Source: Kiritimatiellia bacterium
Lineage (GTDB): Bacteria; Verrucomicrobiota; Kiritimatiellia; RFP12; UBA1067
DNA length: 35,838 nucleotides
Direction of reading: 5' to 3'
NCBI GenBank assembly: GCA_045540275.1
Contig: JAZQGX010000297.1
Coordinates: 1 to 35,838, forward strand
Shown piece after piece: positions 18,405 to 24,482 of this stretch (positions are counted from its first letter, which is position 1; each line of letters starts with the position of its first letter). The notes under the pieces are model-generated. The model was not told the origin of the DNA, ran no database searches, and saw only the letters and a program-made list of their open reading frames with translations. A program made the position numbers and the translations under genes.

Positions 18405-18480
18405 CTTTAAATGAGAGAGTCGCGGCATCTGATGATGCTGCAAATGTTGTTGGGTTAGGTAGAGCAATAAGGAGTTGGCA

Positions 18481-20268
18481 ATGGGAATCTTTTTCGATAT
18501 CTGTGATGCATTGATTGATCCTAGCACGGGACGCGCCTTGTCCGGCGAAGCACTTGAAAAAGCGATGGCCGATCGCAAATGGCCTCGTTGCGGAAACACA
18601 GTCAGTAAGCGTGCCCGCTTTTGCAATTCGTGCGGCAAACCGGCTCCCGGTGGATGGTGGAAGTGCCCGAATTGCAAAAAATGGATCGGCAACGATTCCC
18701 GCTTCTGTCCTCATTGCAACCAGCCGCTCTTTCCGGAAGAGCGTGCGGCGATTGCCGGCGGCGTCTGGTGCAAGGAACAGCGTTTCTTCGCACAGCGGTT
18801 TGAGGTGGGAGATATCAAGCGTCTCCTTTCCGACGGAATTTTAGTGCAGGAGGGGACCTTGGCGATTCTGCTCGACGCCGGGCAGATCCACGGCATCTTG
18901 GAACCCGGACGCCATAATCCTGATTCGCTTGCCCGTAAAATCAACTGGTTCGGTAATCCGCCGCCGCGCAGCGTGGTATTGGTGGACGCTGCGGAGATTG
19001 TCGTGCCTCTGCAGATTGAGGCGTTGCGCACCAGCGAACACTTCCCGATTGATTTTTACGGTGAAGTGATGCTCCGCTTCAAGGGCGACAAAGATGCGGC
19101 AAAAGCGTTTATCGGCAATATATTGGGTTCTGAACGCAGCTGCACCTTCAAGGAACTTTCTGACAATTTCATCCGTTCGGTTCGCATCGCCGTCGATGAA
19201 ATGGTCGTTGCCTCCACCATCGACGATTTGGTTCGCGATCCTGAACGCCGCATCCGATTGCAGGAGCGCATGAATGCCCGTCTTTCCGAAGATCTTGCCG
19301 CTTGCGGTTTGGAGCTTGTGCGGGTCTCTTCGGCGGAATTCACCGGTGAGCAATATGAAGAGTATGCCGAAAAACTGGGTAAGATCGATATTCAGCGGCG
19401 CGAACTTGAGTACAGTGCGGCATTGCGCAAGATGTTCGAAAGAGATTCGATGGCCCAGCACAAAGATGCCGACGCGCTTAAGCAATACAAGGAAATCGTC
19501 GACCACGAATACCGCATTTCCCGCGAGCGGCGCGATCACGAATTCAAACTGATTCAGCGCGAACACAGCCACGACGACATCGTCTATCAGCGTATGCTTG
19601 AAGTCGAAAATCTCGAACAGCAGCACAAGGTGGAAGACATCAAGCAGCACCACCAGCATGCGCAGGAATCGCGTCAGACCGAGCATGACATCTCAATCAA
19701 TTCGCGCATGGACGAATATGAGCGCGGCAAAAAGGTCGGGGACGCTCAGAGCGATGTGCAGGCGCAGGATATCCACACCCAGCAGGATGTTAAAGACGCC
19801 ATGGCGTGGCTCGACGTCAAAATGCGTAAAAACGCAATTAAACAACAGGACAAAGGACTAGACGCCGAACGCCGCAAGGGGATGTCCCCGCTTGAACTGC
19901 TCGCCGATATCGAAGATGCCCAGTTGCGCAATGATATTTTCGAGATGTACAAACTGCAGCTTCAGTCCGGAATGTCGCCCGAGCAGATCCTGGCGCAAAT
20001 GGGCAAGAGCCACTATGGACCGGAATACGAACAGTTCATGCAGAAAATGGCCGATCTCTACAAGGATAATTCCGACCGCGCCGAGCGCGGATTGGCAGGA
20101 CTCGTTTCCGCGCTTCGGGTGAACATCAACGGCTCTGTTTCGCAGGGCGCGCAGTACAATGTCGGAATCCACCAGCAGAATCACAACCAGAACTGCACGA
20201 GCATGAGCAACAGTCATTCTTCCTGGCAAAATATGAACAATTCGACTGAAGACAACAAGAATTCGTAA
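18481..20268 (+). CDS. Double zinc-ribbon plus SPFH/band-7 (flotillin/stomatin-like) domain protein with a long charged coiled-coil tail
   Basis: The N-terminus has CGNTV...CNSCG...CPNCKK...CPHC, which are two CxxC pairs twice. The middle region (GILVQEGTLAILLDAGQIHGILEPGRH...VVLVDAAEIVVPLQIEALRTSEHFPIDFYGEVMLRF...) has an SPFH-like pattern. The C-terminal ~250 aa are E/Q/H/K-rich heptad-like. AAGGAG lies 6 nt before the ATG at 18481. Confidence 0.65.
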   Translation: MGIFFDICDALIDPSTGRALSGEALEKAMADRKWPRCGNTVSKRARFCNSCGKPAPGGWWKCPNCKKWIGNDSRFCPHCNQPLFPEERAAIAGGVWCKEQRFFAQRFEVGDIKRLLSDGILVQEGTLAILLDAGQIHGILEPGRHNPDSLARKINWFGNPPPRSVVLVDAAEIVVPLQIEALRTSEHFPIDFYGEVMLRFKGDKDAAKAFIGNILGSERSCTFKELSDNFIRSVRIAVDEMVVASTIDDLVRDPERRIRLQERMNARLSEDLAACGLELVRVSSAEFTGEQYEEYAEKLGKIDIQRRELEYSAALRKMFERDSMAQHKDADALKQYKEIVDHEYRISRERRDHEFKLIQREHSHDDIVYQRMLEVENLEQQHKVEDIKQHHQHAQESRQTEHDISINSRMDEYERGKKVGDAQSDVQAQDIHTQQDVKDAMAWLDVKMRKNAIKQQDKGLDAERRKGMSPLELLADIEDAQLRNDIFEMYKLQLQSGMSPEQILAQMGKSHYGPEYEQFMQKMADLYKDNSDRAERGLAGLVSALRVNINGSVSQGAQYNVGIHQQNHNQNCTSMSNSHSSWQNMNNSTEDNKNS

Positions 20269-20280
20269 AAGTTTTTTCAA

Positions 20281-21801
20281 ATGAAGATCGTTTGTCCAAA
20301 TTGTGGAAAAAAAGTCGAGCACGGAAGGTTCTGCGAAAAATGCGGAAATCCTTTTGCCGCCGAATCGGATACTGGAAATGACCGTTCTTCGGAATGCCGG
20401 AGCTCTTTTGGCGAGGAGCCTACCCGCGGCGGCAGCGTCAATTCGGGCCAATCGGATTTTTCGCAGATGCCGATTTTGCATCAAGGTGATTGTTTTTCAA
20501 ATGTGCATGAGGGTTTGAAAAAGTCCCAGTCGGCCGGTGGAAATATCGCATTTCCGCAGACGGAAAACGCCACCTCGCTGTTTTTTTCCGATCAAAGCGG
20601 TCCTGAGTTGATGGTGGATCAGCTCTGCGTACAATTTGAGAATCTTTCCGGCATCGTGCGCTTCCTGTTCAATCCCGGGAATGCGCGAGACGGGCTGGAG
20701 AACATCGTGTTCAAATTTGAAAATCAGCTGACCGGGGAGTCTGTCTCGTCGCGCATGCTGCCGTTTCTCAATCGTTCGTGGGAGTTTTCTCTGCCGTTTC
20801 CCGCACAACGCGCCGGAGCAACGGTGTGGTCGGTTACCGGATTGTATGAGATTTCCGGCGTAAGGCACCAGATTGTGGGCGATATGCAGATGGTGGTTAT
20901 TCAACCTCGCGAAGCGCAGACCATCGCCGACAATCTTTGCATCAACATCAGCAACAACATCAACAACGGAAACGCCTCGGACGTCCATGTTTCGCAACGC
21001 GCGCTTGAGGATTTGACCAAGTTGGCCTCCGCGGAAAATCCTTTTGACGAACTTCGCCGCATCATATCAGGCAGGACTCGCTCATGGTGCGGATTGCCGC
21101 TGATCGACTCGAATACTTCCGGTCAAATGCCGCCGATGCCGCCACGGGCAAAAACGGAACGCATAACCCTGGATTTCGGCACTCATCGAGTCACTTTTCT
21201 TGGGGGGCGCACCATCCGCTTTGGACGAAACAGGGATGTAAACGACATTTCGCTGCGACCGGCGGCCTCCGCCACAGAAGATCAGAAGCGTCCGTATTGC
21301 ATGATTAGCCGCGCCCATTGCCACTTCGAACATCAGGGGCAGTCAGTTGTCATTTGCGACGGTCAGCGTGATGAGCGACAGGTGCTGGTGGCGTCAAGCG
21401 GCGGCACATTCTGGAATGGTGTCCGCATTGACGGTTCGATAAGGCTCAACGCGGGGGATCGGGGCGTGGTTTCATTTGCCGGCAGTTATAACGGCGCGAT
21501 CTCGCTTGACGTAAAGGTATGCAAATCGGCGGGGGATTGCAGTTCCTGTCCTCACGCGGGCAGACAATGGTGCGGAGACGGATTGCGCTCATCGCTCATG
21601 CTTACCCGCAGAGACGGCATACCGGAGAAATTCATTGCGGTCTGGAGCTGCTTCCGGTTGGAAGAGGCCGACCCGTCGTTTAACGGGGTTTTGATTTTCC
21701 GAAAAGACGGAGCCTTCGCCTGGCGGAAGGGGCGCAAGTGCGGATGGATTATTCCCGGGACATCGCAACAGACGGATTTTGGAACGGTAACTGTTAACTG
21801 A
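20281..21801 (+). CDS. Zinc-ribbon plus FHA-domain protein
   Basis: The N-terminus has CPNCGKKVEHGRFCEKCG. The FHA-like core is ITLDFGTHRVTFLGGRTIRFGRNRDVNDISL...MISRAHCHFEHQG..VVICDGQ...SSGGTFWNGVRIDG..RLNAGDRGVVSF, matching the G-R...SR.H......D.GS.NGT.vNG pattern. The middle ~250 aa and the Cys-rich C-terminus are unassigned. Confidence 0.55.
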   Translation: MKIVCPNCGKKVEHGRFCEKCGNPFAAESDTGNDRSSECRSSFGEEPTRGGSVNSGQSDFSQMPILHQGDCFSNVHEGLKKSQSAGGNIAFPQTENATSLFFSDQSGPELMVDQLCVQFENLSGIVRFLFNPGNARDGLENIVFKFENQLTGESVSSRMLPFLNRSWEFSLPFPAQRAGATVWSVTGLYEISGVRHQIVGDMQMVVIQPREAQTIADNLCINISNNINNGNASDVHVSQRALEDLTKLASAENPFDELRRIISGRTRSWCGLPLIDSNTSGQMPPMPPRAKTERITLDFGTHRVTFLGGRTIRFGRNRDVNDISLRPAASATEDQKRPYCMISRAHCHFEHQGQSVVICDGQRDERQVLVASSGGTFWNGVRIDGSIRLNAGDRGVVSFAGSYNGAISLDVKVCKSAGDCSSCPHAGRQWCGDGLRSSLMLTRRDGIPEKFIAVWSCFRLEEADPSFNGVLIFRKDGAFAWRKGRKCGWIIPGTSQQTDFGTVTVN

Positions 21802-21811
21802 GGAGGTAGAA

Positions 21812-22393
21812 ATGGGATTCCTGTTTTTTAAAAGCAAGCGTGAAAAAGAGCGTGCCGAACGCCGCGAACGCCGTCATGCGCTTCGCAAGGCCGAGAGTGC
21901 GGTCGATGAAGTGGTCTCGCGCATCAAAAGGATGGAAAAGGATGCCGACGCCGAATGGGAACGCGCCCGCGAAGCGACTAAAGAAGGCAAGCAGGCCGCG
22001 GCTCAGCGTGCTCTGACCAGTTATCGTTCGGCACAAGTGCTGGTTACCAAACTCGAGCAGAAAAAATGGGTCTTTAAGCAGGTTCTTATGAAACTTGAAA
22101 CCGCTGGAACCGACGCCGAGTTCGCCAAAGCGCTTGCGGCGGTCAACAGGGTTACCGATATCAATGTCGAGATGGTCGAAGACGTGTTTGACGAAGCCGG
22201 AGATCTTCTCGCCGAATCCGGCGACGTCGACAAGTTCTGGGCGCAGATGTACGGCAAGGAGGTCGAGGGTTCGAAAGTAGCGCTTCAAGACCATATTCCA
22301 TCAATGGAAGATTTGGAAAGGCATCTTCAGGAGGAAGTTGCAGGCAAAATTGCAAGCGGCATTTCACCGGAAGAGCTTGAGAAAGAGATTTAG
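21812..22393 (+). CDS. ESCRT-III (Snf7/CHMP/Vps2-like) family protein
   Basis: The product is 193 aa. It begins MGFLFF and has a basic N-terminal half (KSKREKERAERRERRHALRK) and an acidic C-terminal half. EATKEGKQAAAQRALTSYRSAQVLVTKLEQKK is colinear with the Vps2/CHMP2 alpha2 region (KMAKQGQMDAVRIMAKDLVRTRRYV). VNRVTDINVEMVEDVFDE...DLL matches the alpha4/alpha5 region. The C-terminal EDLERHLQEE is MIM1-like. GGAGG lies upstream of the ATG. Confidence 0.6.
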   Translation: MGFLFFKSKREKERAERRERRHALRKAESAVDEVVSRIKRMEKDADAEWERAREATKEGKQAAAQRALTSYRSAQVLVTKLEQKKWVFKQVLMKLETAGTDAEFAKALAAVNRVTDINVEMVEDVFDEAGDLLAESGDVDKFWAQMYGKEVEGSKVALQDHIPSMEDLERHLQEEVAGKIASGISPEELEKEI

Positions 22394-22467
22394 TTCATAA
22401 TCACTGCTGGTTCCGGCGTGAAAGCAGCTTGTGATGAGTTGTTATTTGATGATGCAAGAGGTGGATC

Positions 22468-23577
22468 ATGCAATCGATAGGCGATAAGAAGAACGATCGA
22501 ATGTCTGCTTGCCAGACGGCGATGAAGGCTCGTGATTACGCCGCTGCCGCCAAGGCTGCGGCAGATGTGGCTGATTGCGCTGAAATTCTCGCCTCTCGTA
22601 CGACCGGTGTCGTGGCCAAGGCGTATGCCCGGGAAATGGAATCATGGCGGTCGCTGGCGAACAGGCTTGAAGCGAGAAAAGCCTGCTCCGCACCTCGCGA
22701 TGACGCTCGCCCACAGGCGGCGCAGGTTATTGCAGATGGCGATGAATGGCTTGTCGGCGAGAAACCGGATGTGACCTTCGATGACATCGCGGGGATGGAA
22801 GAGGCAAAGCGCATTATCGACGAGATGGTGATCTACCCCATGAAGTCGCCGGATAAGGCTCGCGCTTTGGGGCTTAACCCCGGCGGCGGCGTTTTGCTCT
22901 TCGGCCCTCCCGGAACCGGCAAAACCATGCTCGGGAAAGCGATAGCAGGGGCTCTCAACGCACCGTTCTACTATGCTTCCGGTGCAGATTTGCGCTCTAA
23001 ATGGTACGGTGAATCAGAGCAGCGCCTGTCAAAACTTCTCAATGCCGCAAAGTCACAGCCGGTGGCGGTGTTGTTTCTTGATGAAATCGAATCGCTGCTT
23101 CCGAAACGCACCGAATCATCGCACGCTGCCGACAATCGGGTGGTGACGCAATTTCTTTCCGATATCGGTGGGTTTGATGGATCGGAGAATCTGCTTCTGA
23201 TTCTCGGAGCGACCAATAAGCCGTGGAATATCGACGAAGCGGTTTTTCGTACCGGGCGTTTCGACGAAAAGATTTATGTCGCACCGCCGGATGCCGCCGC
23301 CAGACTCAAAATTCTGGAGTTGAACATCGCCGGGGCGCAGCTCGGTCCGGAAGTCGATTTAAACGAAATCGCCAAAGCGATGGAAGGGGCGTCGGGCTCG
23401 GATGTGTCGGCAGTAGTTTCCGCGGCCAAGCGTTCGGCATTGGCTCGCGCAATCCGGGAGGACAGCGATCCGGTTATCTGCAAAGAGGATTTGCAAGCGG
23501 CGCGTGAGCGTATTCCGCTTAGCATCACCGGTGAAATACTTGAGCCTTATGAGCGGTTTATGAAGGAGCGGCTTTGA
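22468..23577 (+). CDS. Vps4-like meiotic-clade AAA+ ATPase with an MIT-like N-terminal three-helix region
   Basis: Walker A is VLLFGPPGTGKTMLGKAIA. The diagnostic SKWYGESE(Q) corresponds to the Vps4/katanin/spastin SKW(V/L)GESEK. Walker B is VLFLDEIESL. LGATNKPWNIDEAVFRTGRFDEKIYVAPPD and ...MEGASGSDVSAVV are present. The C-terminal helix EDLQAARERIPLSITGEILEPYERFMKE resembles the Vps4 C-terminus. The N-terminus has the MIT-like helices AAAAKAAADVADCAEILASR...AKAYAREMESWRSLANRLE. Confidence 0.8.
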   Translation: MQSIGDKKNDRMSACQTAMKARDYAAAAKAAADVADCAEILASRTTGVVAKAYAREMESWRSLANRLEARKACSAPRDDARPQAAQVIADGDEWLVGEKPDVTFDDIAGMEEAKRIIDEMVIYPMKSPDKARALGLNPGGGVLLFGPPGTGKTMLGKAIAGALNAPFYYASGADLRSKWYGESEQRLSKLLNAAKSQPVAVLFLDEIESLLPKRTESSHAADNRVVTQFLSDIGGFDGSENLLLILGATNKPWNIDEAVFRTGRFDEKIYVAPPDAAARLKILELNIAGAQLGPEVDLNEIAKAMEGASGSDVSAVVSAAKRSALARAIREDSDPVICKEDLQAARERIPLSITGEILEPYERFMKERL

Positions 23578-24482
23578 AACCTGTATGTTGCAAGTGCGGA
23601 AAAACCCTGCCCAATCGCTGGGCGGTTGGCAAGCGGGTGGTGGTCGACGGAGTTGAACAGTGCTATTGCCATTTGCATGCGGTCGATAAGCGAGGCGAAC
23701 AGATGGCAACCGGCAGAGCAATGAAGAGAGAGGAGGTTGTCGCGATGAGTGACAATGAACAAAATGACAAATCCGGCACTCGGGAGGAAGAATTGACGAA
23801 AAACGCCTCAGGGGAGCTTGTTAAAAAGGCCTGGGGCGAGTGCTCGTCGCTTGTTTCAAAACTGGGCGGCGGTATTAAGGTTGTATGGGCAAAAATACAC
23901 CCCGACCGTTCGCCGGAGGCGATGCTGTCGAGCCTCGACGGCGATTTGGCGGAAAACCGGCGCAGGCTGGCAGAAATCAAGCCCGAGCTGGATCGAGCCT
24001 ATCGCGATATCGTCGCCGGGAAAAAGGATTACCTGTCGGCGCCACCGGCGCGTCAGCGTATTCTTAAAATCGAGTTGCAGAGCCTGTTGGCACGCTATAA
24101 ATCACTCGAACGTGAGTTCGGGATTCTTTGCGAAAACGAACGATCCATCGAGATGGTCCGCGGCAGATTTCTTGAGGTGCTTGCGCACGGTATGCGCGGC
24201 AAACTCAACGTCGATACCGTTGACCGCCTGACCGACAGCATCGAGGAGCAGGTCGATGAGGCCGAGGATGTGCAGGACGCGCTGTCAGATCTCGAGCGCG
24301 CCGGCAAAAGAAGCGAACGAGATACTGGAGATTTTGATTCGGAACTCGCCGATTTTGACGGCGAACTGGGTTTGGTCGAAGATGTTAAAAAGGAGGAGAA
24401 AAATGAAGAAAAGAACAATATTGATATCGTCACTGATAAGCGCGGTACTGCTCTCGAGGAATCTGACGGCGGGATTGCGTGA
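23574..24482 (+). CDS. Zinc-ribbon plus ESCRT-III/PspA-superfamily-like coiled-coil protein with an acidic MIM-like tail
   Basis: It has a TTG start that overlaps the Vps4-like stop by 4 nt (TTGA). The N-terminus has CCKCGK...CYCHLH. The central helices are LSSLDGDLAENRRRLAEIKPELDRAYRDIVAGKKDYLSAPPARQRILKIELQSLLARYKSLEREFGIL. The C-terminus has DEAEDVQDALSDLERAGKR, which resembles the Vps2 MIM1 DLEERLKNLRR, then DFDSELADFDGELGLVEDV. The fold assignment is tentative. Confidence 0.4.
   Translation: MKPVCCKCGKTLPNRWAVGKRVVVDGVEQCYCHLHAVDKRGEQMATGRAMKREEVVAMSDNEQNDKSGTREEELTKNASGELVKKAWGECSSLVSKLGGGIKVVWAKIHPDRSPEAMLSSLDGDLAENRRRLAEIKPELDRAYRDIVAGKKDYLSAPPARQRILKIELQSLLARYKSLEREFGILCENERSIEMVRGRFLEVLAHGMRGKLNVDTVDRLTDSIEEQVDEAEDVQDALSDLERAGKRSERDTGDFDSELADFDGELGLVEDVKKEEKNEEKNNIDIVTDKRGTALEESDGGIA

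Follow-up and report, generated by a model that had tools for sequence, protein, structure and literature searches.

The window, i.e. the whole stretch of DNA that was analysed, comprises 35,838 nt (positions 1 to 35,838 of the forward strand of contig JAZQGX010000297.1, assembly GCA_045540275.1) from a Kiritimatiellia bacterium (GTDB lineage Bacteria; Verrucomicrobiota; Kiritimatiellia; RFP12; UBA1067), a gut bacterium belonging to the PVC group. It carries a cassette in the order SPFH, FHA, E1, AAA ATPase, E2, with all genes on the (+) strand:

18475..20268, +, gene 1, double zinc ribbon, SPFH/Band-7 domain and long charged C-terminal region, 597 aa (Pfam Band_7 E 1.1e-9, DZR E 7.5e-8)
20281..21801, +, gene 2, N-terminal zinc ribbon and FHA protein, 506 aa (Pfam FHA E 8.9e-7, residues 312-394)
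21812..22393, +, E1, ESCRT-III/Snf7-superfamily protein, 193 aa (Pfam Snf7 E 4e-5)
22468..23577, +, single-domain classical AAA ATPase, 369 aa (Pfam AAA E 8e-38, AAA_lid_3)
23574..24482, +, E2, zinc-ribbon-like N-terminus, divergent ESCRT-III-like core and variable acidic tail, 302 aa

The start codon of E2 is a TTG that overlaps the stop of the ATPase gene, and zinc-ribbon modules are common to three of the cassette proteins (SPFH, FHA and, in zinc-ribbon-like form, E2). L001 and L005, both Kiritimatiellia loci, show the same five-gene order, and L012 shows it with an inserted kinase. A counterpart of the SPFH gene lies likewise upstream in L001 and L014, where the position of the FHA gene is also taken by an FHA protein; in L005 the matching size and position belong to a sequence read as an ORF only. 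No winged-helix (CdvB-type), CdvA, ESCRT-I/II or adaptin-like proteins were detected.

Against Pfam Snf7 (PF03357) E1 itself scores 23.8 bits, under the gathering score of 27.3, and its relatives P0367 and P0374 exceed this threshold with 29.0 and 30.5 bits. Most E1 orthologues bear a precomputed PF03357 annotation. A comparison of the E1 family profile by hhalign with a true Snf7 homologue, which itself matches yeast Snf7 structures at E 1e-21, gave 95.5% in the local and 97.4% in the global alignment (E 3.4e-11 over 205 columns). Judged by the Pfam matches of the family members and by hhalign, E1 is a homologue of Snf7. Its hydrophobic N-terminus MGFLFF is conserved, with M1-F6 invariant among the orthologues, and its other end is conserved as well:

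22367..22390, +, extreme C-terminus PEELEKEI of E1, residues 186-193, conserved in orthologues

P186, L189, E190, K191 and E192 of this segment are kept in 114-120 of 120 orthologues.

The link of E2 to the same family is more remote, with a weak Pfam Snf7 match (E 0.025, 14.7 bits). Behind the zinc-ribbon-like N-terminus (C5, C8, C30, C32, H35) an ESCRT-III-like core spans residues 71-267 approximately, and the tail after the core is variable and acidic. The profile alignments make E2 a homologue of the second ESCRT-III-like paralogue family that occurs in the wider loci (hhalign 96.6%, E 4.8e-10), and this family is itself collinear with the E1 family over 129 columns (35%, E 4e-4). Two parts of its C-terminal region are conserved:

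24330..24374, +, acidic-hydrophobic helix DFDSELADFDGELGL of E2, residues 253-267, conserved in orthologues
24468..24479, +, extreme C-terminus GGIA of E2, with the ending [GD]-[IVFL]-[IVAP]-A-COOH conserved in 30 sampled orthologues

In the first of these F254, L258 and F261 are invariant and D255, E257, A259 and G263-G266 near-invariant. The Pfam Snf7 match of E2 (residues 207-267 to profile positions 97-155) closes with this helix, which is probably the equivalent of α5.

The gene between E1 and E2 encodes the ATPase, for which the following parts were located:

22468..22686, +, MIT-fold three-helix N-terminal domain as predicted by AlphaFold2 and Foldseek, residues 1-73
22687..22749, +, variable, predicted-disordered linker, residues 74-94 (pLDDT < 50)
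22903..22923, +, Walker A GPPGTGK, residues 146-152, located by motif position
22999..23013, +, pore-loop-1 K-W-Y-G-E, residues 178-182, invariant among orthologues

Within the Walker A motif G146-T150 and G151 are invariant among the orthologues, and K152 is near-invariant (at least 90%). The pore loop KWYGE seems to resemble the “KW.GE” form of Vps4, fidgetin and Msp1. In the second region of homology the ATPase reads A-V-F-R-T-G-R-F-D-E-K-I-Y, with R-T-G-R-F-D at 261-266. The meiotic-clade signature of this region is A-x-x-R-R-F/L-x-K-R, with R-R-F in Vps4, katanin and spastin, while R-x-G-R-F-D is the classical form of Cdc48, PAN and FtsH; the window ATPase does not carry the meiotic-clade signature. 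Its NCBIfam scores are 209 bits for PAN, 208 for CDC48 and 202 for CdvC, all far under the cut-offs, and the CdvC equivalog NF041006 would demand 650 bits for membership. Foldseek placed p97/Cdc48 D2 (E 1e-15, 33-38% identity) and M. sedula Vps4 (E 1.7e-14, 31% identity) nearly level. The AAA module lies as near to Cdc48 D2 and PAN as to Vps4. With E values up to 0.1 admitted, Pfam showed no Vps4_C in the ATPase of the window; the ATPase relative of locus L016 scores 30.4 bits, over the cut-off of 21.3, and that of L015 15.4 bits. Makarova et al. 2024 (PMC11188069/PMC10936438) recognise Vps4/CdvC by an N-terminal MIT domain or by a location adjoining ESCRT genes, and the window ATPase has a predicted MIT fold and Snf7-like genes on both sides.

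This fold had been anticipated by the sequence-only reading, which saw three amphipathic helices, like an MIT bundle, in the N-terminal part of the ATPase. AlphaFold2 predicts helices at 4-20, 24-44 and 47/48-71/73 with a pLDDT of about 85-95, and the models of the full-length protein and of the isolated domain agree on them. The predicted domain is an asymmetric three-helix bundle of the 70-80 residues or so that characterise MIT domains. In the Foldseek search against the PDB the ranks 1, 2, 3, 5, 6 and 7 are MIT domains. Single domains matched over the full length and at low rmsd were MIT domains only, and most of these bind ESCRT-III. In a comparison of profiles, hhalign to a validated MIT alignment reached only 5.8% and E 0.0065, though in register. 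Pfam searches for MIT (PF04212) stayed empty, both with the ATPase (E up to 0.1) and with a set of 28 N-domains (E up to 10), and HMMER profiles found no MIT chain in the PDB. We describe the N-terminus as a predicted MIT-type fold without detectable MIT sequence similarity. The domain is highly conserved in the clade of the window, with S59-W60-R61 invariant and specific to this clade, and the following linker shows high column entropy and frequent indels among the orthologues.

Conservation extends to the gene neighbourhood. Eight diverged loci were looked up (L013 from Lentisphaeria, L014-L019 and one further record), and in 8/8 an E1-like gene adjoins the gene of an AAA ATPase of 365-382 aa; seven of these loci were read as DNA, and their ATPases all have a homologous N-domain. 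SPFH, FHA, kinase and peptidase genes recur as neighbours, SPFH and FHA in some of the recovered stretches and not in all, while the E1-like gene is always beside the ATPase gene. Around the cassette and its relatives we further find M48/U49-like zincins (with weak Lit/CapP-like matches), Peptidase_C1, caspase-like Peptidase_C14 and proteins that combine Pkinase with FGE-sulfatase. Because the adjacency is conserved in diverged lineages, the ATPase and the ESCRT-III-like genes may be regarded as a functional unit. The ATPase-substrate pair proposed earlier thus keeps its footing in the synteny, and loses the one it was given in recognition motifs.

These motifs are two peptides that had been described as the C-termini of E1 and E2 and likened to the MIM1 helix of Vps2/CHMP:

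22301..22348, +, E1 motif SMEDLERHLQEEVAGK, residues 164-179, in the α5-equivalent helix of the Snf7 core
24258..24311, +, E2 motif EAEDVQDALSDLERAGKR, residues 229-246, where the α4-equivalent core helix ends

Both peptides are present at these positions, and neither is a C-terminus, with 14 residues following in E1 and 56 in E2. MIM1, the MIT-interacting motif 1 of Vps2/CHMP1-3, reportedly has the consensus (D/E)xxLxxRLxxL(K/R) (Obita et al. 2007; Stuchell-Brereton et al. 2007). It is the last helix (α6), set apart from the Snf7 core by a flexible linker, and binds the α2/α3 groove of an MIT domain. Scored in the best register inside each peptide, over 6 consensus positions and with relaxed residue classes, E1 matches 2/6 and E2 3/6, and in approximately 96% of 2000 shuffles of each protein the best window reached 4 or 5 of 6; the resemblance is not above chance. 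The E1 motif has Glu at +7 where MIM1 has its anchor Leu, and its Arg is shifted by one residue; this Arg of “DLER” is Lys in 117/120 orthologues. The E2 peptide includes a helix-ending A-G-K-R. A proline motif of the MIM2 type was not seen by eye.

The alignments assign both peptides to the core instead. The region of the E1 motif is conserved across the wide family with the consensus P-S-[ML]-[ED]-[ED]-[ML]-x-x-x-L-x-x-E-V-A; in P0374 the motif (167-177) lies inside the Pfam Snf7 match (32-179, profile 7-156 of 171), and in the global hhalign alignment to the true Snf7 homologue the E1 peptide falls in the acidic α5 region. The E2 peptide is part of the block that aligns to the second paralogue family, opposite “AEDRAVKDLDKIG”, and in the hhalign comparison of E2 with E1, at a probability of 0.4%, it stands opposite E1 120-150 (VEMVEDVFDEAGDLLAESG...). 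On this evidence the peptides are ESCRT-III core helices, corresponding to α5 in the case of E1 and to the last part of α4 in that of E2. A MIM1 identity is supported for neither, given consensus scores not above chance and the placement in core helices.

A helix in the position expected of a MIM does exist in the wider family, as far as the alignments tell. About 150 wider relatives, with PVC bacteria as the named hosts, end after a variable linker in I-x-E-G-R-x-R-L-K-x-L-L, which itself matches just 3-4 of 6 positions of the MIM1 consensus. The motif is absent from 120/120 E1 orthologues of the clade of the window, the 74-nt spacer downstream of E1 contains no remnant of it in any frame, and neither E1 nor E2 of the window has a terminal helix of this type. 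By comparison of the sequences it was lost in this clade, and PEELEKEI of E1 is the conserved remnant of the place where the wider family runs on into the helix. The loss of the terminal R-L-K-x-L-L helix alongside a still conserved MIT-like domain could imply a new kind of MIT ligand. Candidates for docking are the E1 ending P-x-x-L-E-K-E-[LI], the α5 of E1, and the acidic tail of E2 with its hydrophobic-Ala terminus.

We consider it fairly probable that the window holds a bacterial ESCRT-III/Vps4-type module of gut and rumen Kiritimatiellia, in which E1 and E2 flank an AAA ATPase with an MIT-fold N-terminus and a linker of about 20 residues, and in which the two peptides are not MIM1. Starting from the homologies, the predicted fold, the motif positions and the synteny, we infer the steps of polymerisation, recruitment and disassembly. 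E1 would insert its hydrophobic MGFLFF and polymerise, alone or together with E2, on the cytoplasmic membrane; the MIT-like domain would recruit the ATPase to the polymer; and the ATPase could then extract or remodel subunits by threading them via the KWYGE pore. The system might be localised or gated by the two zinc-ribbon proteins encoded upstream, SPFH and FHA, and by the Ser/Thr kinases nearby.

Counted against this explanation were the missing MIT sequence signal, an AAA module that is not Vps4-specific and reads R-T-G-R-F-D in its second region of homology, the missing Vps4_C match of the window ATPase, the weak link of E2 to Snf7 and the lost terminal helix.

That SMEDLERHLQEEVAGK and EAEDVQDALSDLERAGKR nevertheless act as MIM1-type helices and bind the MIT domain of the ATPase at its α2/α3 groove appears very improbable to us. 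Both peptides contain D-L-E-R, reminiscent of D-L-E-E-R-L in CHMP2A, both are strongly conserved among orthologues, and the receptor domain is predicted to be MIT-like. Some eukaryotic MIT domains bind α5-containing segments (LIP5 with CHMP5), and a core helix is possible in principle as a ligand. These points are outweighed by consensus scores under the best window of the shuffles, by the absent anchor Leu and displaced Arg of E1 and by the helix-ending residues in the E2 peptide far from its end. Moreover, both peptides belong to Snf7-core blocks, where packing within or between subunits would engage them, and the family has a separate terminal helix at the canonical MIM position. The N-terminal bundle could also be an adaptor of a generic three-helix or TPR-like kind, with no part in reading ESCRT-III tails. 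Its ligand could then be another cassette protein, whether bound by way of an SPFH, FHA or zinc-ribbon module or as a phosphorylated partner; or it might self-associate. The ATPase would engage E1/E2 or another substrate through the pore only. The lack of sequence similarity to MIT fits such an adaptor, as do the zinc-ribbon modules of three cassette proteins as a possible common handle; the canonical terminal helix is missing from E1 and E2, yet the N-domain with its invariant S59-W60-R61 is highly conserved. We still hold the adaptor to be unlikely, since among single domains it is only MIT domains, mostly those of ESCRT-III binders, that match over the full length at low rmsd, since the succession of N-domain, disordered linker and AAA is the Vps4/CdvC architecture, and since it is the E1-like gene that always accompanies the ATPase gene, which is not the case for SPFH and FHA.

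A different emphasis results if the cassette is mainly a system of conflict or stress signalling and not a vesicle-forming or division-type ESCRT machine. The AAA protein would then act together with proteases and kinase sensors encoded nearby, and the ESCRT-III-like proteins would serve either as effectors of membrane damage or in repair. Zincin, Peptidase_C1, Peptidase_C14 and combined Pkinase + FGE-sulfatase neighbours speak for this, as do the 110 bits of the ATPase to the IetA models of PADLOC and the activity of bacterial PspA/Vipp1 relatives in envelope stress (PMC7619361). The PADLOC families were, however, matched by the generic AAA module and zincin motifs only; any classical AAA domain would give such an IetA score, and NCBIfam IteA stands at 105 bits against a cut-off of 510. 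We regard this emphasis as quite improbable; it concerns the biological role, and the ATPase-substrate mechanism proposed for the ESCRT-III/Vps4-type module can stand beside it.

The module of the window shares its kinds of accessory genes with archaeal CdvB/CdvC and euryarchaeal ESCRT-III and Vps4 systems (PMC11188069/PMC10936438). Meth_adaptin loci contain an SPFH protein with a coiled coil and a zinc ribbon, an FHA protein occurs in Halo_FHA loci, and Ser/Thr kinases occur in the Main clade (PMC11188069). In contrast to these systems the host is a PVC-group bacterium, E2 has an N-terminal zinc-ribbon-like module, neither a CdvB-type winged helix nor CdvA was detected, and the ATPase remains under the CdvC equivalog cut-off, has the R-x-G-R-F-D motif and, in its AAA module, is as near to Cdc48 D2 and PAN as to Vps4. 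Compared with the eukaryotic pairing of Vps4 MIT with CHMP/Vps2 MIM1 (PDB 2V6X, 2JQ9), the proteins of the window are without such a terminal helix, their MIT-like domain has no detectable sequence similarity, and the peptides are off-consensus core helices, with 3-4/6 reached by the terminal helix of the wide family. The likeness to bacterial PspA/Vipp1 lies in ESCRT-III-superfamily proteins linked to SPFH/Band-7, zinc ribbon and sometimes AAA+ (PMC11237479); Ravi et al. 2024 report PspA-SPFH (YdjI) loci and PspA/Snf7 associations with AAA+ (PMC11237479). E1 differs in matching Pfam Snf7, with PspA_IM30 not returned by Pfam at E up to 0.1, and the ATPase, which joins one classical AAA domain to an MIT-like N-domain, is neither PspF nor the two-AAA-domain protein of that paper. 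For VPS4-like transfers to bacteria, ACB74714.1 among them, the paper notes no adjacent snf7 (PMC11237479), whereas Snf7-like genes flank the ATPase of the window.

For bacteria, ESCRT components other than ESCRT-III are stated as not found (PMC10936438), and the bacterial ESCRT-III relatives PspA/Vipp1 are stated to lack a Vps4-like disassembly ATPase (PMC7619361). A conserved bacterial locus of Snf7-family proteins and an MIT-fold AAA ATPase would qualify both statements, and the accessory kinds common to archaeal ESCRT loci add weight to this. We propose tentatively, as a possibility somewhat short of an even chance, that a genuine ESCRT-III and MIT-AAA (“Vps4-like”) machine for membrane remodelling exists in PVC bacteria (Kiritimatiellia, Lentisphaeria and relatives), with accessories of the euryarchaeal type and with a rewired MIT-tail code. 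If true, this would contradict the statement that bacteria lack Vps4-type partners of ESCRT-III. A corrective lesson is that short acidic “DLER”-type matches in coiled-coil proteins are no evidence of a MIM. A bacterial locus of this kind would offer a tractable system for the evolution of MIT-tail recognition, and it would bear on whether the partnership of ESCRT-III and its ATPase is older than the archaeal lineage or was transferred.

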